From the IMG/VR virus record IMGVR_UViG_2693429582_000021, positions 1 to 11,066 of that record: a stretch of DNA of 11,066 bases; one strand, 5' to 3'. Positions 1 to 11,066 of the stretch are shown here, piece after piece (within the stretch, counting starts at the first letter, position 1; each line of letters begins with the position of its first letter). Source of the DNA: a virus (Duplodnaviria > Heunggongvirae > Uroviricota > Caudoviricetes). Below the pieces are notes generated by a model. It saw only the letters and a program-made list of their open reading frames with translations. It did not search any database and was not told the DNA's origin. A program made the translations under genes and the position numbers.

Positions 1-34
1 GTATTCGCCGCCCGTATTCGTCAGGAGGTGCGCC

Positions 35-265
35 ATGTGCAATAAAAACACGCCGGACGCAGCAGGCGAAGCATTGAAAGTACTGATACATGCGCTTGTG
101 GATATAAATTGCATGGTAGAGATCATGGAGAGGAAATCACAGTCGGAGTACGACAAAAGAAAATTTAAAACAATAAAAATAATTACCAAAAACTCACTGA
201 CAAAAGCTACAGACATCCTCAATGAGGACACTAAAAGAATCAGGGAGAAACTGTGTGATGCATAA
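35..265 (+). CDS. hypothetical small protein (76 aa), first gene of plus-strand operon
   Basis: ORF with strong Shine-Dalgarno (AGGAGG at about 23-28) 6-8 nt upstream of the ATG at 35; no recognisable family from the translation. Confidence 0.5.
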   Translation: MCNKNTPDAAGEALKVLIHALVDINCMVEIMERKSQSEYDKRKFKTIKIITKNSLTKATDILNEDTKRIREKLCDA

Positions 266-485
266 AATACCTTTTGATGTTCTTATTCATTCTGAGAATG
301 CATTAATCCGCGCAAAGGAAATGGAGGCATTATTACTTAAGTTAATGGAAGTGCCGGAAAATGGCGATGAATCATATCCCATGATGTTTTCTGCCGTGCA
401 CACATTATTAACGCCAGTAATTAACGAATTAAATACGGTGATGGCAATTCACGAGAATAATAAAGCGCATCACACCGGAGAATAA
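258..485 (+). CDS. hypothetical small protein (about 75 aa from the ATG at 258; the ORF is open from 222)
   Basis: In-frame ATG at 258 preceded by GGGAGA about 9 nt upstream; overlaps the stop of the previous ORF (263-265), consistent with coupling. Function unknown. Confidence 0.4.
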   Translation: MHKIPFDVLIHSENALIRAKEMEALLLKLMEVPENGDESYPMMFSAVHTLLTPVINELNTVMAIHENNKAHHTGE

Positions 486-490
486 AAACC

Positions 491-790
491 ATGAAACAGA
501 AAAATTCTGGCTTTACTGCCAGCGGCCTCCCTCGGCCTGAAATCCGCCCCGGCGATATTTTCCGGGATAACTACGGCGGCACAGTAACGATTAAACACGT
601 GGCGGGACGGTGCGTTACTTACCGCCGTGATGGGTACGGCTATGACTGCGTGATGCCTGTTTATCAGTTCCGGCGTGATTTTTCCCTGGTACAGACTGCG
701 CCGCGTAACCAGCCCACCAGCAAAGAGAAGGCACGGGTAAATATTCAGGCCATAAGAAAAATGCTTAACGGATTCAGGGGTAAAAAATGA
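491..790 (+). CDS. hypothetical protein (99 aa), translationally coupled to the downstream primase-like gene
   Basis: GGAGA about 10 nt upstream of the ATG at 491; its stop overlaps the start of the next gene as ATGA (787-790). No family recognised. Confidence 0.5.
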   Translation: MKQKNSGFTASGLPRPEIRPGDIFRDNYGGTVTIKHVAGRCVTYRRDGYGYDCVMPVYQFRRDFSLVQTAPRNQPTSKEKARVNIQAIRKMLNGFRGKK

Positions 791-2919
791 AACTGGCACC
801 GAACGTAAAACTATTGCCGAAAGATAAAGGTGAGGAAGCAGTAATTTTTGTGGGGGATGACGCATACAGCCACGCAGAACATTACAGGCAGGGTGGAGAA
901 GCCGGAAAGCGCGGCGACAAAATACCGCCCGTTTATATCGGACGGCGTGACCTGGGTAATCTGGAAAACCTGCGTATTGTGGATGATGGCCGGTTACGCG
1001 TCATGGTCAGACGTGCCGGAAAGCTGGATGGCAAACAGGCGCTACAGATTGAAACCCTGCTCGCAGTAGCTGGTGTTAAGGAAGTCAGTTTTTGTGACGA
1101 GAACGGCGAACTACTGGAGGACTGGACACCACAGCTTGCCCGACTGAAAGACGAATACGAGCGTGGGGAAAGTCTGGTGTTGCCCTTAAAGAAAAAAATC
1201 ACAGAAAACCATGGCGATGATGAATTAAAGCCCCGCGTTGAAAGCCGCGCCGATGGTGTTTTCTGGGTAACGCCCAAAGTGGATAAGCAGTCAGGCGAAA
1301 TTATCCGGCCTGAGACGTGGTTATGTTCCCCGCTTGAACTACTGGGAACGGGAACAATCGGCAAAGAGCATTACCGCGTGATGCGCTGGAAAAAATTAGC
1401 AAATCATGAAGTCATCACAATGGCGATCCCGTGTGGTGGCATTGGCGACCGTGACGGCTGGCGGTTGCTGAAAGACCACGGTTTGAACGTGACAACCAAC
1501 GGTAAATACAGGGCTGTCCTGGCTGACTGGATGCAGTTAAGCGGAAGCCATGAGGAATGGCAGTTAAGCACAACAACGGGCTGGCATTTTGGCGCGTACA
1601 TCATGCCGGATGGTTCGGTCATTGGTGATTGCGAAAAGCCAGTCCTGTTTACCGGAAAAACGGCTGCCGTTAATGGTTATTCCGTGACAGGAACGGCGGA
1701 GGGCTGGCGCGACAGTGTGGCGCGACTGGCTGGTGGTAATCCGTCCATGATGCTGGGAGTGGCGGTATCGTTATCCGCACCATTAATCGGGCTGGTGGGC
1801 GCTGACGGCTTCGGGGTACATCTTTTCGAACAGTCATCGGCAGGGAAAACCACCACACAGAACATAGCATCAAGTTTATGGGGAGAGCCGGACGCGCAAC
1901 GGCTGACCTGGTACGGAACGGCGTTAGGTATCGCCAACGAGGCAGAGGCACACAACGACGGACTGTTACCACTGGATGAAATAGGCCAGGCCGGAAACGC
2001 GCGGGAGGTGTCCACATCGGCTTATACGCTGTTTAACGGTTCCGGTAAATTGCAGGGGGCGAAGGACGGCGGCAACAGGGAGATAAAACACTGGCGAACG
2101 GTGGCAATCAGTACCGGAGAAATGGACGTTGAGACATTCCTCAAAACGGAGGGGATAAAAGTCAAGGCGGGGCAGCTTGTCCGCCTGCTTAACGTGCCAA
2201 TGGAAAAAGCCACACAATTTCACGAATACAGCACCGGAAAGGCGCACGCAGACGCGTTAAAGGATGCCTGGACAGCAAATCACGGGGCGGCGGGGCGTGA
2301 GTGGGTTAAATGGCTGGCAGACCACCAGCAGGAGGCAAAGGATACAGTAAGGGAATGCCGTGAACGGTGGCGCAACCTGATACCGGAGAGCTACGGCGAG
2401 CAGGTCCACCGCGTGGGTGAGCGTTTCGCCATACTGGAGGCCGCACTTGTGCTTTCCGGTCATGTGACTGGCTGGGATGAGCAGGAATGCCGCGATGCCA
2501 TTCAGCATAATTTTAATGCCTGGGTGAAGGAGTTCGGCACGGGCAACAGGGAACACAGGCAGATTATTGAACAGGCTGAGGCGTTTCTTGCGGCCTATGG
2601 CCTGAGCAGGTTCGCCCCTGTCAATTATGACCCTGCCAGCCTGCCGATTTCAGAACTGTACGGCTACAGGGAAAGCGACGGGCGTTATGACGAGCCTGTT
2701 TTGTTTTACGTGCTGCCGGAGCCGTTTAGCTCACATGTGGCGAAGGGATTTAACAAGGATGCCGTAGCAAAGACCCTTCATGAAGCCGGAATGCTGAGAA
2801 AACCAGCCAGCGGGCGAGGATGGCAAATCAGGACACCACGGCTAAAACACCTGAAAGGGGCGCGGCTAAGAGTGTATGGCCTTTTGCTGACGCAGGACTA
2901 CGATGCTGAAAATGATTAA
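787..2919 (+). CDS. replication protein of integrative element/satellite: primase/helicase-like P-loop NTPase (DUF927/SF3-helicase-like architecture)
   Basis: 710-aa uninterrupted ORF; Walker A-like motif SSAGKTT (about nt 1840-1860) and Walker B-like hhhhDE (LLPLDEIG, about nt 1960-1985) in the middle of the protein; large N-terminal domain; immediately followed by an iteron array. Family assignment from pattern recognition, not a search. Confidence 0.8.
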   Translation: MKLAPNVKLLPKDKGEEAVIFVGDDAYSHAEHYRQGGEAGKRGDKIPPVYIGRRDLGNLENLRIVDDGRLRVMVRRAGKLDGKQALQIETLLAVAGVKEVSFCDENGELLEDWTPQLARLKDEYERGESLVLPLKKKITENHGDDELKPRVESRADGVFWVTPKVDKQSGEIIRPETWLCSPLELLGTGTIGKEHYRVMRWKKLANHEVITMAIPCGGIGDRDGWRLLKDHGLNVTTNGKYRAVLADWMQLSGSHEEWQLSTTTGWHFGAYIMPDGSVIGDCEKPVLFTGKTAAVNGYSVTGTAEGWRDSVARLAGGNPSMMLGVAVSLSAPLIGLVGADGFGVHLFEQSSAGKTTTQNIASSLWGEPDAQRLTWYGTALGIANEAEAHNDGLLPLDEIGQAGNAREVSTSAYTLFNGSGKLQGAKDGGNREIKHWRTVAISTGEMDVETFLKTEGIKVKAGQLVRLLNVPMEKATQFHEYSTGKAHADALKDAWTANHGAAGREWVKWLADHQQEAKDTVRECRERWRNLIPESYGEQVHRVGERFAILEAALVLSGHVTGWDEQECRDAIQHNFNAWVKEFGTGNREHRQIIEQAEAFLAAYGLSRFAPVNYDPASLPISELYGYRESDGRYDEPVLFYVLPEPFSSHVAKGFNKDAVAKTLHEAGMLRKPASGRGWQIRTPRLKHLKGARLRVYGLLLTQDYDAEND

Positions 2920-2944
2920 TCTCGCGTGTAGGCGGTAACAATAT

Positions 2945-3272
2945 GTTGTCCCAGTCGTCCCAGAAAGCAATAAGCAAGCGTAACATATTGAATTTTATAG
3001 ATTTCACTTGCAAAAAGTGGGACAACAGCGGGACAACATTCAGGCATTTTGGGACAACATTGCGGCATTTTGGGACGACACGACACGTATTTTTTACCGT
3101 GCCGAAGGGTGGGACAACGCAAAACCCCTCATGTCGTCCCAAAATCGGTAAATGTCGTCCCACTTTGCGGAGTGTGTTTTTAATAAAATCAATAAGTTAA
3201 CATTAAGTGGGACAACCGGGACAACTGGGACGACGTGTTTTGTATATATATACGAAAAATCGAGATCTGAAC
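2945..3272. repeat. iteron array plus AT-rich tract: putative replication origin
   Basis: About 12 copies of the 8-mer GGGAC(A/G)AC in both orientations (plus copies at 3019, 3030, 3051, 3072, 3111, 3209, 3218, 3227; inverted copies GT(T/C)GTCCC at 2945, 2954, 3133, 3154). Three copies sit in a 21-bp tandem unit CATT..GGCATTTTGGGACAAC (3030/3051/3072). An AT-rich stretch TGTATATATATACGAAAAAT (3241-3260) follows. Position directly 3' of the replication gene matches rep-ori organisation in satellites and plasmids. Confidence 0.7.
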
Positions 3273-3273
3273 T

Positions 3274-3516
3274 ATGAAGTCAAACCGCAAACAACCACAC
3301 TACCGCGCCATTGACCTTACAGAGCACTGGCTGAGAGTGGCGATAAAAATCATCGACCGCAACACGGGGGAAGGATACGCGAAAGCACACCCCGAACTGA
3401 TAAGCGCATTCATGGCAACGGCGGCAGCAAACTTTGCCACGCTGACAGAACGGGAGATTGCCGAATCGGAACAGGTGACAACCATCAACATTAAAACCGG
3501 AGAGCAGACAGCATGA
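3274..3516 (+). CDS. hypothetical protein (80 aa)
   Basis: ORF beginning just after the AT-rich tract; its stop overlaps the next start (ATGA at 3513-3516). No family recognised. Confidence 0.5.
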   Translation: MKSNRKQPHYRAIDLTEHWLRVAIKIIDRNTGEGYAKAHPELISAFMATAAANFATLTEREIAESEQVTTINIKTGEQTA

Positions 3517-3935
3517 CAGCACAGATAGCGGCTTACGGGCGGCTGGTGGCTGACCCGCAGTTAAAGACCACCAGCAAAGGGACACAAATGGCGATGGCGA
3601 GTATGGCGGTTCCCCTGCCGTGCAGCCAGGCCGATGACGGAACGGCGACGATGTGGTTATCCGTCCTGGCGTTTGGCAGACAGGCCGACGCACTGGCCAG
3701 ACACCACAAAGGCGAACTGGTGAGCGTGGCGGGTAACATGCAGGTAAGCCAGTGGACAGGCCAGAACGGCGAAACGCGGCAGGGCTGGCAGGTTATCGCA
3801 GACAGCGTAATCAGTGCGCGAACGGCGCGACCGGGCGGCAAAAAAGGTCAACAGGGCCAGGCTACTGACGCGCTGAACAGGGCAAAACAACAGGCGGGTA
3901 ATGATGATCCGTACGAAGACAACATACCGTTTTAA
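3513..3935 (+). CDS. single-stranded DNA-binding (SSB-like, OB-fold) protein
   Basis: 140-aa translation shows an SSB-like pattern: N-terminal GRLVADPQLK resembling E. coli SSB GNLGQDPEVR, conserved W...FG...A...KG..V...G......W....G..R spacing, and a Gly/Gln-rich tail ending in acidic residues plus DNIPF (SSB tails end D-D-D-I-P-F). Confidence 0.7.
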   Translation: MTAQIAAYGRLVADPQLKTTSKGTQMAMASMAVPLPCSQADDGTATMWLSVLAFGRQADALARHHKGELVSVAGNMQVSQWTGQNGETRQGWQVIADSVISARTARPGGKKGQQGQATDALNRAKQQAGNDDPYEDNIPF

Positions 3936-3971
3936 TTCACAACAGCGAACAGAGTTATTACAGGGGAAAGC

Positions 3972-4496
3972 ATGACAAAGCTGACCATTAACCGAAAACC
4001 GAAAGGCATTTACGGCACGCTGCAGAAAACGACGCAGGCGATACAGCAGCAGGATAAAACCACATCGGCGCATAAAGTGATACCCGGCAATCAGAACGCA
4101 CAGCAGAAGCCCACAGGGGCGACACCGTGGCGGCATATGACCAAACGCCAGCGCAAAAACCGCAGACGCGTTAACCGCCTTACTGAGATGTGGCCTGACT
4201 TATTCAGCCGGGAAGCGCCAAAACCGCTGAAGGTGGGGATATTCGACGACCTGATGCAGGATATCGCCGTCAGGGGGCTGGCATTCGGGCCGGGGGCATT
4301 ACGTGCGACGCTGGCATCTTATGCGCAGTCTCCACGCTATTACCGCGCCTTAATGGCTGGTGGGGTACGCTACGACCTGAAAGGCCAGCCATGTGGCGAG
4401 GTGACATCACAGGAACAACAGGACGCAGAAACGCGGCTGATGATGCTGAATGAGAAGCGTAAACGCCGGACAGCAAAGGAGAAGACAGGCGCATGA
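3972..4496 (+). CDS. FinO/ProQ-family RNA-binding protein (RNA chaperone)
   Basis: 174-aa ORF; the C-terminal two thirds align with the F-plasmid FinO core (WP.LF....P.L..GI.D.L..D.A.R...., Y...M.AG..RYD..G); basic N- and C-terminal tails typical of the family. SD-like GGGGAAA upstream of the ATG. Confidence 0.8.
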   Translation: MTKLTINRKPKGIYGTLQKTTQAIQQQDKTTSAHKVIPGNQNAQQKPTGATPWRHMTKRQRKNRRRVNRLTEMWPDLFSREAPKPLKVGIFDDLMQDIAVRGLAFGPGALRATLASYAQSPRYYRALMAGGVRYDLKGQPCGEVTSQEQQDAETRLMMLNEKRKRRTAKEKTGA

Positions 4497-4780
4497 TTCG
4501 TGACAGCAAAGCGGAAGAACTGGAGGCTAAAGGGCTGTACCGAAGAGCGACGGCGCGGTGGGCTGAGGTTATGCAACTGGTGAACACCGATAAGGAGCGC
4601 GAACAGGCGGCAAAGCGTCGCGCGGAATGTATCCGTAAGGCAGCACGCCCACCCGTTATGGCGGATAACTTCGGAGCGCTGAAAGAGGCTGTAAACCGCA
4701 CTCATGCGGTGATGGGGATGGAAGACGCGGGTAAATCCGTCTGGCGGAACTATCCAAAGCAGCCGGGCAATAATCAGTGA
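4493..4780 (+). CDS. small regulator, possibly PerC/Pch-family transcriptional activator
   Basis: 95-aa ORF coupled to the FinO-like gene (ATGA overlap at 4493-4496). N-terminus MIRDSKAEELEAKGLYRRATARWAEV resembles my recollection of PerC/Pch N-termini; the family call is tentative. Confidence 0.4.
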   Translation: MIRDSKAEELEAKGLYRRATARWAEVMQLVNTDKEREQAAKRRAECIRKAARPPVMADNFGALKEAVNRTHAVMGMEDAGKSVWRNYPKQPGNNQ

Positions 4781-4862
4781 TGCCGGATATTATCCTGAAA
4801 AATGACCATCACTCCCGTGGGCGGATAACATAAAATCCTGCATATACGCAGATACACAGACG

Positions 4863-4887
4863 AAGCCGGAACACTCCGGCTTTTTTT
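4863..4887 (+). terminator. rho-independent terminator ending the plus-strand replication/regulatory operon
   Basis: Stem AAGCCGGA / TCCGGCTT with loop ACAC, followed by a run of seven T (4881-4887). Confidence 0.7.
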
Positions 4888-4965
4888 ACGGGTCCTTCCA
4901 GAGGGGTGGCCTTACCGCGAGGCGACGGACGCGCGGAAATCGCCAAATTTTCGCATTTTTATCGG
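4888..4965 (+). other. cos-like site A (diverged cosQ-cosN-cosB-like sequence)
   Basis: ACGGGTCCTTCCAG (4888-4901) matches the lambda cosQ-region motif ACGGGTCCTTTCCGG. About 32 nt downstream, GAGGCGACGGACG CGCGGAAATCGCC AAATTTTCGCATTTTTATCGG parallels lambda GGGCGGCGACCT CGCGGGTTTTCGC TATTTATGAAAATTTTCCGG, roughly 65-70% identity by eye. Confidence 0.45.
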
Positions 4966-5233
4966 TCATCACCACCAGCGCAATTTATTGATAATGAAGG
5001 TTAAAAAAATTCCTGGTGTCGAAAACGCCTGTTTTTTGTTCACCACTGAATCATGCCGCATCACGATAACCCACAAGGCTGGTGGTGATGCGTTATGGTC
5101 CCTACGTTGCCATCCCCCTGACCTCATGGCATTATCCGGCGTGAACGAGCGGTTATTCTCCGTACTCTTAATCGTTGTTCATGGTTATTTGCTTTGTGGT
5201 AGCTTACATTTCCTGATGGTTATTATCCTTCCG

Positions 5234-5257
5234 CCCCGTAATCACGGGGTTTTTTTT
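5234..5257 (+). terminator. rho-independent terminator inside the non-coding region
   Basis: Perfect hairpin CCCCGT-AATC-ACGGGG followed by eight T (5250-5257). No credible upstream CDS, so it may terminate a small RNA; the 128-aa ORF 4988..5374 reads straight through it. Confidence 0.6.
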
Positions 5258-5295
5258 GTCTGCGATTTGCCGTTCTCCGTTGCGCTGGTGGTAAC

Positions 5296-5331
5296 GTCAC
5301 GATGTGTCACGACATGTCACCATCACGTCAC
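5296..5331. promoter_or_regulatory. phased array of four GTCAC motifs at about 10-bp spacing (putative protein-binding site)
   Basis: GTCAC at 5296, 5306, 5316 and 5327 within aacGTCACgatgtGTCACgacatGTCACcatcacGTCACg; one helical turn apart, which would place all sites on the same face of the DNA. Confidence 0.4.
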
Positions 5332-5720
5332 GCTGATGGCGAAAGTCAGGGTTAACCAGTACCGGAACGGGTAGCCCGATGTACTGTTACCGTTCTGCTG
5401 GCTGGTGGAGTAATTGATAACGGTTATCATCAATGGGAGGGGTGGATCAAATCCCTGTAGTCCTGGCTGTCAGGGACCGCCGCCCAACCCTTCTTCACAT
5501 CGCCGCAGGTTCGAAAACTTTTTTTTGGGAAGGTGCGCACAGACTTGATAGATAAAACCTATCAGACAAAACCACGCCAACCCCGCGCCATTGCTGGCAT
5601 CGTTAAAAAAACTCACTCCACCAGCAGGCTAAAAAACCGTGATTTTTCCGGTTTTATGGGCTGAAAAGGGGCTCCCTAAAAAACACCTCTTACACTGCCG
5701 GACAGGGGCGGTGACTTTTC

Positions 5721-5850
5721 ACGGGTCCTTTCCGGGGATCTGAAACACCACGGGGCGGCAGACGCGCAGATTTTCACTATTTATAAAAATTTTTCAGGGA
5801 AAAAGCATGTCGGTACTTCTTGCATGTAACATTATGTTTTTATTGCAACT
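5721..5850 (+). other. cos: cos site B: lambda-like cosQ, cosN and cosB upstream of terS
   Basis: 5721-5735 ACGGGTCCTTTCCGG is identical to the lambda cosQ-region motif. 5753-5764 GGGCGGCAGACG aligns with lambda cosN GGGCGGCGACCT. The following CGCAGATTTTCAC TATTTATAAAAATTTTTCAGGG ... CTTCTTGCATGTAAC ATTATGTTTTTATT parallels lambda cosB. The cosN-to-terS-start distance (189 nt) is essentially that of lambda cosN to Nu1 (about 190 nt). Confidence 0.75.
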
Positions 5851-5941
5851 AACTATCATAAACATACGACACCATAACGCCGGAAAATCCCGTTTTTCAG
5901 GCGTTTCATGTCGGAGGTGGTTTTTGATGAGGATTTGATAA

Positions 5942-6526
5942 ATGAATGTTAACAAAAAGAGACTGGCGGAGATTTTCGGTGTTGATCCGCGCACAATTGA
6001 GCGCTGGCAGATGCAAGGGCTTCCCCATGTATCTGGTGGCGGAAAAGGTGTGGAGGTGACTTTCGACTCTGCACAGGTGATCGAATGGTATGTACAGAGG
6101 GAGAAGGAGATCGAAAACGAAAAACTCCGCAGGGAGCTTGATGATTTACGTGCTGCTGGTGAATCAGATTTACAGCCAGGCACAACAGAGTACGAACGCT
6201 ACCGTCTCACCAAAGCACAGGCGGACGGGCAGGAACTGAAGAACGCCAGAGAGACAGGGGAAGTTATAGATACTGAGTTCGTACTCTGTGCGCTTCGTGG
6301 ACTGGCGAGTCAGATTTCTTCGATCATGGATAGTTTGCCGCTCACAATGCAAAGGCAGTTCCCCGGGATGACTCCGGCAATGCTCGATGGCCTGAGGAAG
6401 GAAACAGCACGAGCCTGTAATGCGTGCGCTAAAACTGCCGATAACCTACCCCGCATTCTGGAAGACTATCTGATGGAAACAACCGGAAACGTGCCGGAGA
6501 AGTTACGGCAACAGAAAGGTGAGTGA
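5942..6526 (+). CDS. terS: terminase small subunit, lambda Nu1 family (orphan; no terL follows)
   Basis: 194-aa translation closely parallels lambda Nu1 over the N-terminal wHTH and ATP-binding region: [49 protein letters not shown]...LR.A.E.DLQPGT.EYER.RLT.AQAD.QELKNAR. The C-terminal 40 aa diverge. Nothing resembling a large terminase follows on either strand. Confidence 0.9.
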
Positions 6527-6553
6527 CAACCGCGCAATTATTGAACAAAACTG

Positions 6554-6616
6554 AGAAAGGATCTGATAACGTTATTTTTGGCCCAAAATGACCACTGTCA
6601 GATCCTTTCTTTTTCT
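6554..6616. terminator. large palindrome downstream of terS, possible bidirectional terminator or protein-binding site
   Basis: Perfect 13-bp inverted repeat AGAAAGGATCTGA (6554-6566) / TCAGATCCTTTCT (6598-6610) with an inner ATTTTTGG-C-CCAAAAT hairpin, followed by TTTTTC on the plus strand. Confidence 0.45.
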
Positions 6617-6619
6617 GAT

Positions 6620-6753
6620 GATTTTACGATTAAACAATGAGTTACAGAGAAGAAGAACGGATCTGACTTTTCCCGAAAAATTTTCATAAACAGTTAAGAA
6701 TTGCGCGTATCCGTACCCCCGGCGCTCAAGATTCTGGAAAGGACCCGTGACAC
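6620..6753 (-). other. cos-like site C (inverted orientation relative to cos B)
   Basis: Minus strand reads TCACGGGTCCTTTCCAGAATCTTGAGCGCC GGGGGTACGGAT ACGCGCAATTCTTAAC TGTTTATGAAAATTTTTCGGG AAAAG TCAGATCCGTTCTTCTCTGTAACTCATTG. This parallels lambda cosQ / cosN / R3 / TATTTATGAAAATTTTCCGG / CGTTTCCGTTCTTCTTCGTCATAACTTAATG. The cosQ-to-cosN spacing is about 4 nt shorter than in site B. Confidence 0.65.
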
Positions 6754-6760
6754 CTGACCA

Positions 6761-6783
6761 ACAAAAAAGCCCCCGAAGGGGGC
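6761..6783 (-). terminator. rho-independent terminator of the minus-strand toxin-immunity operon
   Basis: Hairpin GCCCCC-GAA-GGGGGC (6768-6782) with an A-run at 6762-6767 on plus, giving a T-run after the stem on minus, immediately 3' of the immunity gene stop at 6788. Confidence 0.7.
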
Positions 6784-6787
6784 TAAA

Positions 6788-7036
6788 TTACGCATCTTTA
6801 AAACTGGATTTGCCATTAGCTAAACGCCAGGTTTTAACTTCTTGTACGATGGCTTCCGGACTATCGTCTTTTCCGTTCTCTGGATAAAAAATTAGATCAG
6901 AGCCTGATGGATGTTCAGAGAGGCGCCTGAATTCTCTGACTAACTGCTCGCTTTCTTTTTCTGTTCCTTCTGCATTACATATTTTTCGAACAAGATCTAA
7001 GAATTCATTTTCAGTATAGTCGTTTATTGTTTTCAC
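6788..7036 (-). CDS. colicin/pyocin DNase immunity protein, Im7/Im9 family
   Basis: 82-aa translation [24 protein letters not shown]....[40 protein letters not shown] matches Im9 (…SDYTEAEFLQLVTTICNA….[40 protein letters not shown]). GTG start 1 nt after the toxin stop, with AGGGGA SD inside the toxin 3' end. Confidence 0.85.
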
Positions 7037-7037
7037 G

Positions 7038-8729
7038 TTATTTTCCCCTGTGAATTTCTATATGCCGCTTTGGTGTTGTGATACCCATATTATCAACGTT
7101 ATAAACTTCGCCCCCCTCACTTATAGGTTTAATATGGTGTATTTCGTAACGTTCCCTCCCACCAACTCGCTCCACTTCCCTTGTGAATGGTGAACGTCCT
7201 TTGCGAATGTTCGTGAGGTTGTGTGCTCTGAACTGTCTTGACAAATCAGCATCGTTTGCCACTTCTGCCCAAAATGCCTCCCTGAATCGATCAAAATTCG
7301 CAAATGTTCGCCCACGCATCCGCTCCGCAATCTGGCTGGGTACTGGTGCACCATTTCCCTTATCGGCATCCACCAGCCACGCCCCGCTAATTTTTTGTCC
7401 TTTCCCTGTTACCTGCCCGGCGTTATTCCTGATGTAAATATAAATCGGCGGTATATCCGGGAATGGCAGGATCAGAATGTAATCCGCAAAATCCTTTTCT
7501 TCCGGGGCCGGGCTGGTTGTGGCGTGTAATCCCGTGTCATCCGGTAACGGGTCCACCATCACCGGATTCGGCAGCACTGGCGGGTACTGATTTCCCGTGT
7601 GGTACGGTACATCAATCCCCGGATTATCCGGCGTCCAGATGAGTGTGATACGCGGGTCTTCCTCCGTGGTGAATGTGTACGCCTTTCGTCTGTCGTCCCA
7701 CTCCATCCGGCGCACGCGCACCCTGTCCTGTCCCGGTGGCGTATGCCAGCCATGCGGAACGGGGTTCCCCCGGCTGTTCGTCTCCCAGGTAAAGCGAACA
7801 CGGGTAGGCACTTCCCTAGCCTGTTCGGCCCTCATACGGTCGATAAAATCCTGTTCCCCGTCATTCAGCCGACCGGGCATCATCCCTATCAGAAACGCCG
7901 CCAGTGGCAGCCCCGCAACCCCGGTCGCAGTTTCACCCACGACGGCCCACGTTCCCCGGATGGCAAAATTCCCCGCCACCGGACGCAGAACGCTCGCCCC
8001 GGCAATTGCCGCTCTGGCCCGTTGTGCGCGCTCCGCTTCTTCAACCGCACGCTGATAATCCATTTCCTCGTGATGGCCGTTCCACCATTTCCACAGTGCA
8101 CTGCGTTTCTTCGGCTTCGGGATATCCTCCGGCGCAACCAGTTTTTTCTTTTTGACCGCCTGTGCACGCTGCGGGGTTTCCGTGTCCGTCACCGGGTCAG
8201 TCTGCGGAACGGCCTGATAAATCCCCATCGGTGCAAAGTTGGTATGCGGCTCCCGCTGGTCGCCCGCGTCGTTGCATCCCTCACCGCGCAGACAGGATTT
8301 TGCAAACACCCGGTTACGTTCCCGTTCTTCCTCCCGGCGTTTTTCTTCAGCTTCCCGTTCTGCCTTGCGTTGTGCTATCAGTTCCGCCTGTTTTTTCTGT
8401 GCAATTTCTGCCGGCGACGGCCCCGCCCCCATCCACTGACCGAGCGGGGCAATAATCCGGTTTGAACCTTCAGGGCAGCCACAGTGAACAACACAGCCAT
8501 CAACGGCAATAGGAATATCTATCACCTTAAAACGGGCTTCTCCTTCTGCCACCATGCCGAGCTTTCCGCACGCCGGGCAGGGGGTGGTTTTGTCCCCCTT
8601 ACGAATAAGACCGTAACCACAGACGTTGTAGTTAGGGACAGGAAGGGAAGTAATCAGCCATGCGCCGGTGGTGGTTTTGTCACAGGAAAGCGCCATTCCC
8701 CTGCCGTGTATATCCGGCCTGTATGTCAT
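7038..8729 (-). CDS. polymorphic nuclease toxin: Cys-rich N-terminal domain, charged coiled-coil linker, pyocin-S-like region, C-terminal colicin E9-type HNH DNase
   Basis: The 563-aa C-terminus ([49 protein letters not shown]…[42 protein letters not shown]) matches the colicin E9/E7 DNase domain including the HNH motif. N-terminal 100 aa carry six Cys in CxxC and CxCGC clusters (possible Zn-binding, PAAR-like GD.T..C..CG pattern). Residues about 115-145 form a Lys/Glu/Arg-rich linker. No signal peptide. Resembles chromosomal bacteriocin-like genotoxins such as Usp, unverified. Confidence 0.9.
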
Positions 8730-9217
8730 GGCTTACACTCCGGCACTACCAGAAAATCCGCTGGCATACTTTCGCCTTCACGACAACAAAGTAATGCTGT
8801 TCGCTGCGGCGTACTGATAATTTCATCCCCGTTATCCAGTTGGCTGCCAACCAGCGCATACCCTTTCCCGTGACAGCTAAACGCACTGCCGGAACCACTG
8901 ACAATACGGGCCGTTGTGCCGTCCTGATAAGTCACCTCATCCCCGACCATCGCCATTTCAGCCATCTCTCCGGTGCTGTCAGCGACTTCGCAGCCGGAAC
9001 TGGCGGAAGACACCACCCCGCCATTACGGGTAAGGCTACCGGTAATGGCATGTCGCCAGATAGCCACTATCGGATGTTGACGGCAAAATTCCTCCTGCTC
9101 CCTGATTATCGCCAGCGCATCATCGGACATATCAGCAAGCGCTTCTTCTGTAAAAGGGGATTTATCCAGTTCTGCCAGTACATCGGCGGTCAGTTCGTTG
9201 GTATATTGCTTCATCAT
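8726..9217 (-). CDS. hypothetical 163-aa protein upstream of the toxin, possibly PAAR-like or adaptor
   Basis: Start MM at 9217 with AGGAAA SD-like upstream; stop overlaps the toxin start (ATGA coupling at 8726-8729). Acidic N-terminal 50 aa, then a Gly/Ser-rich region with repeated VGD and GS motifs (MAMVGDEVTYQDG, IVSGSGSAFSCHGKGYALVGS) reminiscent of PAAR repeats, and a Cys-containing C-terminus. Confidence 0.6.
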   Translation of the reverse strand: MMKQYTNELTADVLAELDKSPFTEEALADMSDDALAIIREQEEFCRQHPIVAIWRHAITGSLTRNGGVVSSASSGCEVADSTGEMAEMAMVGDEVTYQDGTTARIVSGSGSAFSCHGKGYALVGSQLDNGDEIISTPQRTALLCCREGESMPADFLVVPECKP

Positions 9218-10050
9218 GTTTCTGTTTTTCCTGTGGTTAACAATCGACCAGAATCATAATGAAAGGGAATGCAAAAAAATTGATGGATATCAAAATGAAA
9301 AATAAAATCATCCCGGTAAAACAGGATATCTACCCCACCAGCATCCCTGGATTTTCAGATAGTTGCTTTTAGCCTCTGAACAACATCTGCTGGTGGCTGA
9401 TAATTACAATAATTCCTGCCCCCTGGCGTTTCTGAGCATGTTTACCGCGAATTTTGCGCAAAACACCTTAACAATTCTTAAATTTTAAAAACACTTCAGT
9501 GATAAGCATCACCGCTCCCGCTCACATTTGACACAGGCAACTCCATCTGGCAGGTGAAAATCAAATTTATTTATATATTTCAATTGATTGTAAACTGGTC
9601 TAATGACAGGGGAGAAAAAAGACTGTACAGGTGAAAACAGAAATAATTTTTAATTATCAATGAATTATCACACATGCTGCCGCCGCCATGAAAATGCAAA
9701 AACTAGCCGTTTTCTGCGCATCCGTCGCCCCGCGGTAAGGGGCACCCCACCGGGAGGACCCACGACGATCAGGGCGTTTTATCAACGTCGTGTGTTATGC
9801 CGGATTAACTGCGTACGTAATACGTGCACATCCCGAACAGGAGCAGCCAGAATCAGCGCCGCTGACGTTGTTTTGTGGTTATCCCCCTGTCATGAATCAT
9901 CGCAATGGTTTTATGTGTTCTGCGTTGCGCTGGTGGGTTATTCCACCATTGGTGGGAAACATGGCACCACATCCACCAGCTTAAACGCGCTTCACCTTCC
10001 CGGCATCAGTCGCCACAATTACGGCATTGCTTTCCATCACCACGGAGGCC

Positions 10051-10341
10051 ATGACCATGACCGAAGCCGAAATGCTCAAAATGATTCGCCGTGCTGCCGG
10101 AATCAGCCAGGCAGCAGGCAAACAGGAGGCCACGCAACCGGACAGCGTGATAGCCGAAAATTACGCGCGTGTGGTGGCTGATGTGATGCGCCGTGACGGT
10201 ATCGAGCTTAACGGCGTGGATATGCGCGATATACGAACCAGAGTTCTCGAGTTGCTGGCATGTCGTCGCCGTTCTCAGCAACGGAGGGAGAGCGCGAAAA
10301 ATACTTACCAGTGGAAGAAGCCGGAGCGGTTACGGCGGTAG
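10051..10341 (+). CDS. hypothetical protein (about 95 aa; the ORF is open from a TTG at 10027)
   Basis: GGAGG at 10044-10048 with ATG at 10051 and 10057; basic C-terminus; no family recognised. Confidence 0.45.
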   Translation: MTMTEAEMLKMIRRAAGISQAAGKQEATQPDSVIAENYARVVADVMRRDGIELNGVDMRDIRTRVLELLACRRRSQQRRESAKNTYQWKKPERLRR

Positions 10342-10577
10342 TGTCAGCATGATTTGCGAGGTAGTAATACTGACTCGCAACAGAGTGACCGATAGCCACC
10401 CTGTTCAACCGTTCCGGCTGGCTGGGCAGATTTTGCGCGGGTCTTATAGTCCCTCACAACAGAGTAAATAAAATTGACTTGGTTACAGAGTAACCAAACC
10501 GGAGATTCCCGGTTTGCTCAAAAAATGACAATGAGTTACGCCCCCTAACCTAAGTAATCCTTACATTCACTGCATCA

Positions 10578-10592
10578 TCACCATGATGGTGA
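10578..10592. promoter_or_regulatory. 7-1-7 palindrome TCACCAT-G-ATGGTGA (candidate operator)
   Basis: Perfect 7-bp inverted arms in an intergenic region. Confidence 0.3.
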
Positions 10593-10706
10593 CGCAGCCC
10601 ACCAGCAACCATAACGATTTCCGTTACAGTTGATGTGCTTTTTTGCTGGTAAGGCGTAACCCGTTGATTGTTCCAGAATCCCCCATTGGGGGAAGCTGAA
10701 AAACTC

Positions 10707-10731
10707 ACCCACCAGATTCTGAATGGTGAAA
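10707..10731. promoter_or_regulatory. 9-7-9 palindrome CTGAATGGT-gaaaatg-ACCATTCAG (hairpin or operator)
   Basis: Perfect 9-bp inverted repeat; shares the ATGGTGA core with the palindrome at 10578; a second hairpin CCCGAAA…TTTCGGG follows at about 10747-10773. Confidence 0.3.
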
Positions 10732-10976
10732 ATGACCATTCAGCTTCATGTGTCCATTTTCCCGAAACAGGAAAACCCGTTTTCGGGAGAAGGTGCGATC
10801 ATGTTCGTCATACCTGTTCCGTTGAAACGGTAATACCCCATTCCGGCGTAGCTGGTGGGTATGATGCCGATGCCGGGATCTCGGTATCGGTTTATCCGTG
10901 ATCATCCACCAGCTTGATAACGGATAACAGGGAGTCATAACGGTTAAAATTGTATACTTTTGCAGCAAACATTTTT

Positions 10977-11021
10977 AGCTACACGTTAAGCTACACGATT
11001 TTTGAGTTGAAATTTTCAACT
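10977..11021. promoter_or_regulatory. direct repeat AGCTACACG x2 followed by palindrome AGTTGAAA/TTTCAACT (candidate regulatory site for a gene beyond the window)
   Basis: AGCTACACGTTAAGCTACACG, then GAGTTGAAATTTTCAACTTCAAC; AT-rich context at the window edge. Confidence 0.3.
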
Positions 11022-11066
11022 TCAACTAAATCAATTAGTTATTGGCATGTTTTGAATACTCTCGTG

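Follow-up and report, generated by a model that had tools for sequence, protein, structure and literature searches.

The DNA analysed here, called the window below, is a stretch of 11,066 bp (positions 1 to 11,066 of IMG/VR record IMGVR_UViG_2693429582_000021, assigned to Caudoviricetes). Directly downstream of a gene for a 710-aa (amino acid) DUF927 protein it carries a cluster of short repeats, or iterons, which is analysed in this work as a putative replication origin. The gene with its terminal domains and the consecutive parts of the array are the following:

787..2919, plus strand: initiator-helicase gene, 710 aa, DUF927; family of Rep from Staphylococcus aureus pathogenicity islands (SaPIs) and Cch from the staphylococcal cassette chromosome mec (SCCmec)
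787..1176, plus strand: N-terminal domain, aa 1-130; weak Toprim-like fold, mosaic between relatives
2647..2916, plus strand: C-terminal ~90 aa, aa 621-710; predicted winged-helix domain, proposed determinant of iteron specificity
2945..2961, minus strand: iterons 1-2 (GGGACAAC, GGGACGAC), starts at 2945 and 2954 with 9-bp spacing; they form the left arm of module 1
2962..3018, no strand: AT-rich tract 1, 57 bp, 28% GC; possible site of unwinding in module 1
3019..3079, plus strand: iterons 3-6, starts at 3019, 3030, 3051 and 3072, spacing 11, 21 and 21 bp; includes the 21-bp tandem unit
3080..3132, plus strand: centre, with a T-tract spacer, iteron 7 (3111-3118, plus strand) and the spacer to iteron 8
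3133..3161, minus strand: iterons 8-9 (two copies of GGGACGAC), starts at 3133 and 3154, 21 bp apart; mirror of the 21-bp unit
3162..3208, no strand: AT-rich tract 2, 47 bp, 26% GC; carries an IHF-consensus match
3209..3234, plus strand: iterons 10-12, starts at 3209, 3218 and 3227, abutting with 9-bp spacing; a triple found in all full arrays
3235..3259, plus strand: element GTGTTTTGTATATATATACGAAAAA (consensus nnnGTTTTGTTTATATATACGAAAA), directly after the last iteron, independent of iteron class

The array comprises 12 exact copies of the octamer GGGACRAC in 290 bp (2945-3234); the whole window has 13, the sole copy outside the array being at 7692. Expectation was derived from 200 dinucleotide-preserving shuffles of the whole window, which contained on average 0.73 copies (maximum 4), and none of the 200 got to 13. 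Eight array copies are GGGACAAC and four are GGGACGAC, the G variant thus making up a third; with one mismatch to GGGACAAC permitted, no extra sites were found within the region. Because T precedes 10 of the 12 copies, the iteron unit is taken to be about 9 bp, TGGGACRAC. The array starts 25 nt past the TAA (2917-2919) of the 787-2919 open reading frame (ORF), and the sites lie at offsets of 26-, 35-, 100+, 111+, 132+, 153+, 192+, 214-, 235-, 290+, 299+ and 308+ after the stop, the sign giving the strand. Tandem Repeats Finder reported a 21-bp unit, GGGACAACATTCAGGCATTTT, at 3030-3080 (2.4 copies, 90% matches). The bidirectional 8-mer array with a 21-bp tandem unit 3′ of the helicase gene, as it was described in a first-pass annotation of the window, is therefore confirmed.

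The sites are arranged in two six-site modules, in each of which the minus-strand sites precede an AT-rich tract and the plus-strand sites follow it, with the exception that in module 2 the plus-strand iteron 7 stands left of its minus-strand sites; the pattern is 2(-)/AT1/4(+) followed by 1(+)2(-)/AT2/3(+). Module 1 occupies 2945-3079, and module 2 together with the TATATATA element 3111-3259. Iterons 7 and 8 are 22 bp apart in inverted orientation, a T4 tract lies 5′ of each of iterons 5 and 6, and inverted repeats I1/I2 (34 nt, 79% complementary) underlie the mirror of the 21-bp unit. A third AT-rich tract (T-rich/TATATATATA, 28% GC) reaches the ATG at 3274, hence the AT-rich DNA noticed earlier is indeed present, in three tracts and not one. 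In the duplex-stability profile the AT tracts are of low stability (z about 2.3-2.7), a property they share with other DNA of the window.

The 710-aa protein matches Pfam DUF927 (1.2e-45) and the solved structure of SaPIbov1 Rep (8tch; 1e-14, and 1e-18 with a family profile); the match to the SCCmec helicase Cch (5dgk) is weaker. SaPIbov1 Rep and SCCmec Cch are self-loading helicases homologous to the 710-aa protein in sequence and fold, and the putative initiator belongs to the Rep/Cch family of DUF927, MCM-like AAA+ helicases. Of the earlier label 'primase/helicase' the second half is upheld by this homology; the first half was not confirmed, as the N-terminal domain is only weakly Toprim-like and could not be demonstrated to be a primase. 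Pfam searches at E<5 with the first 170 and the last 110 aa gave no match. When modelled, the C-terminal domain is predicted to adopt a winged helix whose best structural match is the winged helix of SaPIbov1 Rep.

Relatives of the module were collected by scanning one genome per species, which yielded 16 in Enterobacterales, and by protein look-ups, which added four more loci. Across 21 loci from about 12 genera the gene is followed, in nearly all of them, by 6 or 12 sites at nearly equal offsets from the stop codon: in Cedecea, for instance, they lie at 25-, 34-, 99+, 110+, 131+, 152+, 169+, 192-, 213-, 266+, 275+ and 284+. The array lies directly downstream of rep, iterons 1 and 2 being placed 22-30 and 31-39 nt past the stop in all related loci, the first-iteron range holding for all 21. 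The short iterons, 6 or 12 in number, include two or more to the left and two or more to the right of an AT-rich region, the two groups pointing in opposite directions. The 11/21/21 spacing of iterons 3-6 recurs in other iteron classes, and tract 1 is 57 bp long in most loci of four other classes, with a different sequence. The distance between the modules is variable (17-42 bp; 169 bp in L009). As the first-pass annotation had suggested, the geometry is a defined one insofar as the layout is conserved across loci; the loading mechanism behind it we infer.

Sites were counted with one mismatch allowed and a single consensus per array. Twelve of the 17 full arrays have 12 sites inside the array, L012 has 11 plus one isolated one-mismatch match, and the remaining four score lower against the single consensus used. 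Half arrays, found in four lineages (L007, L014, L023 and L026), have six array sites in all four cases and correspond to module 1 alone, L026 having in addition two stray single matches. They have neither module 2 nor the nnnGTTTTGTTTATATATACGAAAA element, their rep is intact and the next gene abuts module 1 (the L007 array is at 4636-4830); one half-array rep allele, P0017, stands for a 90%-identity cluster of 1,141 member sequences. Since module-1-only arrays follow intact rep genes, module 1 appears to suffice as an origin, and 2945-3079 is probably the minimal origin. In every full array (L008-L021, L024, L025) the last iteron is succeeded by the nnnGTTTTGTTTATATATACGAAAA element, whichever 8-mer is present; the element may be a site of unwinding or priming, or a promoter -10 region. 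A second class-independent motif, similar to TTTTCTGGCTGG, is found in the centre of many arrays.

The 21 loci use nine different 8-mers: GGGACRAC, GGGACAAG, GGGAYAAG, GAGGCRAC, GAACCAAC, GAACCACG, GAACCGRN, TAACCCAC and TAACCCGC. Covariation with the protein was assessed by pairwise identity over three segments, the last 90 aa, the helicase core and the N-terminus. The last 90 residues (aa 621-710) are mostly 62-100% identical within an 8-mer class and 28-58% identical between most classes; the helicase core is 64-89% identical everywhere and is not partitioned by 8-mer class, and the N-terminus is a mosaic independent of it. In L009 and L010, with 85% identical cores and 43% identical tails, the 8-mers are GAACCAAC and TAACCCAC, respectively. 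On the strength of this covariation we propose that the C-terminal winged helix sets the iteron specificity, and that, in evolution as in exchange, the C-terminal domain and the array behave as a single specificity cassette.

The sites are also more constrained than their surroundings. When six E. coli copies (80-99% identity) are aligned, all 84 fixed iteron columns are invariant, against 82 variable ones among the 258 spacer columns (Fisher p = 2e-12); three of the 12 R columns vary, between A and G only. Spacers among relatives carry 1-bp and 6-bp indels, and 21 of the 57 columns of AT-rich tract 1 vary among close relatives.

A natural exchange was found in E. coli C5, in which window positions 829-3492 are replaced (the counterpart is L006 6829-9142) within an island that is otherwise 95.5% (1-828) and 98.4% (3493-11066) identical to the window. 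One breakpoint is placed some 14 codons into rep, the other some 8 codons before the small ORF ahead of ssb ends. The two genes downstream of the array are the following:

3274..3516, plus strand: 80-aa ORF (phrog_1231, function unassigned), inside the swapped module 829-3492
3513..3935, plus strand: SSB gene (Pfam SSB 8.5e-16, NCBIfam ssb), outside the swapped module

The replacement encodes an AAA_25/RepA-type helicase, followed by a bidirectional AGTGGGG array around an AT-rich tract and by a different ORF. AlpA is 99% identical between the swapped island and L001, an island nearly identical to the window that carries the GGGACRAC array, and the small terminase (TerS) gene with its upstream region (5722-6526) is unchanged in the swapped island (98% identical). 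Since helicase and array were exchanged together and AlpA and TerS stayed the same, the array travels with the helicase and not with AlpA or TerS. The PICI backbone (phage-inducible chromosomal island, see below) carries three unrelated replication modules across strains, and in each of them the gene is directly followed by an iteron array of its own: DUF927 in the window, AAA_25/RepA-type with AGTGGGG in E. coli C5, and D5_N/DUF5906 with GGTAGAYA in EcCICFT073.

The genes around the array encode DUF4222, SSB, ProQ/FinO, PerC, a Nu1-type small terminase and a cargo of PAAR, S-type pyocin DNase and immunity proteins. The window begins downstream of int and alpA; int and AlpA (PF05930) are present in loci L001 (99% identical to the window over the array) and L006 (95-98% identical to it in the flanks). 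In E. coli genomes with the same sequence the island is inserted at tRNA-Pro between yejM and yejO, and in L006 it spans roughly 14 kb, between about 2.8 and 16.7 kb. It is small, has a cos-like region, and in place of a complete set of phage structural and lysis genes it carries only a Nu1-like terS, plus cargo; int, alpA and pri-rep form one rightward unit at a PICI-specific attachment site. By these features of sequence and gene order the element is a Gram-negative PICI at tRNA-Pro, and yejM is among the PICI attachment sites tabulated in Fillol-Salom et al. 2018 (ISME J, PMC6092414). The cos-like non-coding region (5722-5940) lies directly upstream of the Nu1-type terS (5942-6526); window 5722-6010 is 70% identical (E = 5e-25) to the cos region and terS start of phi4 CFT073, the cos sequence of which is given in Fig. 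S5 of the same paper (PMC6092414).

Taking the above together, we read the repeat cluster 2945-3259 as the likely vegetative replication origin of a Gram-negative PICI, recognized by the tail domain of the adjacent helicase, and put the probability of this reading at about 0.85. It agrees with the first-pass annotation, which saw in the array the arrangement of a replicon origin read by the adjacent initiator; what speaks for it now is the covariation of the 8-mer with the C-terminal domain, the swap of helicase and array as a module, and the stronger constraint on iterons than on spacers. The kind of origin has already been described, and the GGGACRAC/DUF927 allele is a further case.

Several observations weigh against this interpretation. 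The AT tracts are not the least stable DNA of the window; being weak but not the weakest, they are not picked out as the unwinding site by stability alone. The Gram-negative PICI origin that has been tested experimentally, that of EcCICFT073, uses an unrelated D5_N/DUF5906 initiator, and the argument for origin function of a DUF927-type module in E. coli therefore comes from its homology to SaPIs. Of the five AlphaFold models only one is confident in the C-terminal domain, and a Foldseek search gave no hit. The close relatives used in the constraint test amount to only about three independent lineages. Finally, the tail of L007 (GGGACAAG) is 86-87% identical to that of the window, yet the last base of its 8-mer differs: either a few residues set the specificity or position 8 is not read. 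The private tail changes of L007 (E. albertii) fall in the predicted wing, GRGW to GEGW and KHLKG to KHMKG (aa ~676-680, window ~2812-2826), and these residues are candidate specificity residues.

The biochemical steps of the mechanism proposed here are borrowed from SaPI Rep and Cch; what the present analysis contributes is the Rep/Cch homology, the predicted winged-helix tail, the conservation of sites, the covariation of tail and iteron and their joint exchange. After induction and excision, the 710-aa DUF927 protein would bind the 9-bp TGGGACRAC sites through its C-terminal winged helix, and the SaPI/SCCmec literature (PMC9371898) suggests that the tail domains would do so without ATP. Spacings of 9, 11 and 21 bp would put sites abutting or on one helix face, and Rep assemblies on both arms would melt the AT-rich DNA. 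Rep would then load itself as an MCM-like 3′-5′ hexameric helicase without DnaA or DnaC, to be followed by host primase and Pol III, aided by the SSB of the island and possibly by the Toprim-like N-terminus. Module 2 with TATATATA (3111-3259) might serve as an optional second loading site, as a Rep-controlled promoter for downstream genes, or both.

Host-factor sites were looked for in the same arrays. No DnaA box (TTWTNCACA) was found in the array of the window, and a scan of 21 arrays gave one match, at offset 45 in L026. An exact IHF consensus, AATCAATAAGTTA, is present at 3187-3199 in AT-rich tract 2; it occurs in five of the 21 arrays, at the same relative place in the window, L002, L010 and L024 and elsewhere in the array in L019, with a background rate of 0.17 per kb.

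Other readings of the repeats differ in how much of these data they account for. The array, or at least its right half (3111-3259), might chiefly be a transcriptional operator/promoter with a -10 in TATATATA, driving the 80-aa ORF, ssb, proQ and perC. nnnGTTTTGTTTATATATAC is conserved in all iteron classes directly upstream of the next gene, it is missing together with module 2 from the half arrays, in which module 1 runs straight into the next gene, and by sequence reading GGGACA resembles a -35 hexamer at four of six positions. The sigma-70 scan of 2700-3600, however, detected no promoter-like site (the terminator scan of the same interval gave one weak terminator-like site, inside the gene end), and a separate promoter is not required if, as described for them, Gram-negative PICIs are transcribed unidirectionally (PMC6092414). 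Such a role would leave module 1, the AT tracts between divergent sites and the homology to SaPI origins unexplained, and we regard it as improbable. It is compatible with the origin as a second role, not as its replacement, and a promoter/operator role of the right half is possible as an additional function. Recognition of the repeats by AlpA or by the product of the 80-aa ORF in place of the helicase is considerably less probable still. AlpA is the master activator of Gram-negative PICIs (PMC6092414) and the 80-aa ORF sits inside the exchanged module, but islands whose arrays are entirely different have 99% identical AlpA proteins, and the ORF is internally deleted in L004/L005 and missing from L007 and all other genera, where the arrays are complete with all sites. 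As the ORF is lost while the arrays persist, its product is not the iteron reader; the 8-mer, moreover, tracks the tail domain of the helicase. Both the AlpA operator and the 80-aa-product site are thus excluded, by the constancy of AlpA across arrays and by the loss of the ORF with arrays intact.

Least credible are the two readings that take the repeats as a packaging site or as accidental. The island encodes a Nu1-like TerS (Pfam Phage_Nu1, 1.9e-68), and cosB of lambda consists of repeated Nu1-binding sites, which would fit a cosB- or pac-like function for the small terminase. In E. coli C5, however, the array has been replaced by an unrelated one while terS and its upstream region are still 98% identical, the cos-like region of the window is elsewhere (5722-5940), and arrays follow DUF927 genes regardless of nearby TerS genes; the module swap and the separate cos-like region exclude a cos/pac site. 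A chance or slippage array, or coding sequence, deserves hardly any weight either: ORFs at 2943-3200 (plus strand) and 2828-3163 (minus strand), called mechanically, do overlap the region, but none of the 200 shuffles reached the observed count and sites in both orientations keep fixed positions across genera. The 1-bp and 6-bp spacer indels of relatives would break any reading frame, RefSeq has no coding sequence there in five genomes, and these two facts rule out the coding reading. Scans of the window for Rfam families (at gathering thresholds) and tRNAs gave no match.

Further features of the island were recorded in passing. A second short cosQ-like match is located at 4885-4899, and a 10-bp tandem repeat, GTCACGACAT, is present in 3.6 copies at 5296-5332. 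The DUF927 and array module occurs both in islands with capsid genes and in capsid-less ones such as the window: major capsid, decoration protein and a prohead protease-capsid fusion are encoded downstream of the array in L002, L003 and L026. Its presence in both island types indicates that the replication module moves between capsid-encoding and capsid-less satellites. The cargo cassette (6788-9217, minus strand) consists of toxin genes:

8726-9217, minus strand: PAAR protein
7038-8729, minus strand: PAAR / S-type pyocin / colicin-DNase fusion
6788-7036, minus strand: colicin/pyocin immunity protein

Judged by its domains, this cargo is a DNase effector of the type VI secretion system type on a phage satellite.

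The Chi octamer GCTGGTGG occurs 20 times in the 11-kb window, 10 times per strand (e.g. at 1729, 1791, 3542, 3568, 5078, 5284, 5401, 9335, 9389, 9929, 9973, 10851 and 10906), with 0.39 expected from shuffles. Chi was also found in islands L001, L006 and L027. L001 has about 26 in its 14.7-kb island versus 5 in 15.6 kb of flanking chromosome, and EcCICFT073 has 11 in 13 kb. The enrichment may protect linear or concatemeric satellite DNA from RecBCD; one search of the literature brought up no paper about such an enrichment in PICIs.

The value of the assignment lies mainly in annotation: it marks the putative replication module and incompatibility determinant of a PICI with PAAR/pyocin-DNase toxin cargo. 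The comparison set adds modestly to it, with a conserved 6/12-site layout over nine iteron specificities, a mapped ~90-aa putative specificity cassette, and natural rep-ori exchanges among three unrelated helicase families on one backbone; it leads to direct chimera and binding designs for self-loading MCM-like helicases in a genetically easy host. A more speculative proposal, which we consider rather unlikely, is that the two modules form a template, in which the six iterons of each module would engage the six winged helices of one Rep hexamer, the 9/57/11/21/21-bp spacings would orient two self-loading MCM-like hexamers, and the conserved helicase core would read TATATATA. If true, nine specificities on one geometry would be a ready-made system for the winged helix-iteron recognition code, and could help to settle the orientation of the helicase at origins, which is stated as unresolved in the SaPI literature (PMC9371898).

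Origins of Gram-negative PICIs have been described 3′ of pri-rep, where an AT-rich region stands between two sets of iterons; the pri-rep-ori of EcCICFT073 drives plasmid replication (PMC6092414). A later survey also places the origin downstream of pri and counts DUF927 proteins among the PICI 'primases' (PMC10111431). The iteron strings of this work were not found in the supplements of Fillol-Salom et al. 2018, the figure of iteron sequences lying outside that search, and a full-text literature search for GGGACAAC returned unrelated papers only. The element analysed here shares with EcCICFT073 the island backbone and the order int, alpA, icd-like, DUF4222, rep, ori, small ORF, ssb and perC, and with Gram-negative PICI origins the position 3′ of rep and the iterons in both orientations around AT-rich DNA. 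The Pri-Rep of EcCICFT073, in contrast, is of the D5_N/DUF5906/Pox_D5 type (helicase superfamily 3, SF3) and its iterons are of the GGTAGAYA type.

The first-pass annotation compared the array with SaPI rep-ori and P4 alpha-ori alike. The likeness to P4 alpha is a functional analogy only: both are satellite replicons with a multidomain protein, a primase-helicase in P4, that binds, or is predicted to bind, short repeated octamers via its C-terminal part (PMC6092414 and general knowledge). In the protein of the window Pfam found DUF927 alone, and none of the D5_N, DUF5906 and Pox_D5 SF3 domains; the 11-kb window has no second 8-mer cluster comparable to crr of P4, only the one stray copy; and, unlike in P4, the putative origin abuts the initiator gene. 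Iteron plasmids (pPS10 RepA, R6K Pi, F RepE, RK2 TrfA) use non-helicase initiators, whereas the predicted initiator of the window is itself a helicase. The array also differs from theirs in having no DnaA boxes, in carrying sites in both orientations and in the lack of a rep-promoter operator upstream of the gene.

The SaPI half of the comparison proved to be one of true homology. In SaPIs the C-terminal winged helix of Rep binds 6-12 iterons downstream of rep around an AT-rich region (PMC9371898). The module of the window resembles the rep-ori of SaPIbov1, SaPI1 and SaPI5 in its homologous initiator with the closest C-terminal winged helix, in the location of the putative origin directly 3′ of rep, in its 6 or 12 short iterons, two or more of them to the left and two or more to the right of an AT-rich tract in opposing orientation (PMC9371898), and in a specificity that resides in the C-terminal domain, as the covariation suggests here. 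It differs in its Gram-negative host, in sites of 8-9 bp in place of penta- or hexanucleotides, in two six-site modules with two AT tracts in place of one central tract, in the class-independent TATATATA after the last site, and in a short Toprim-like N-terminus where SaPIs have a separate or fused primase. By sequence comparison the DUF927 allele, unlike that of EcCICFT073, is a true homologue of SaPI Rep.

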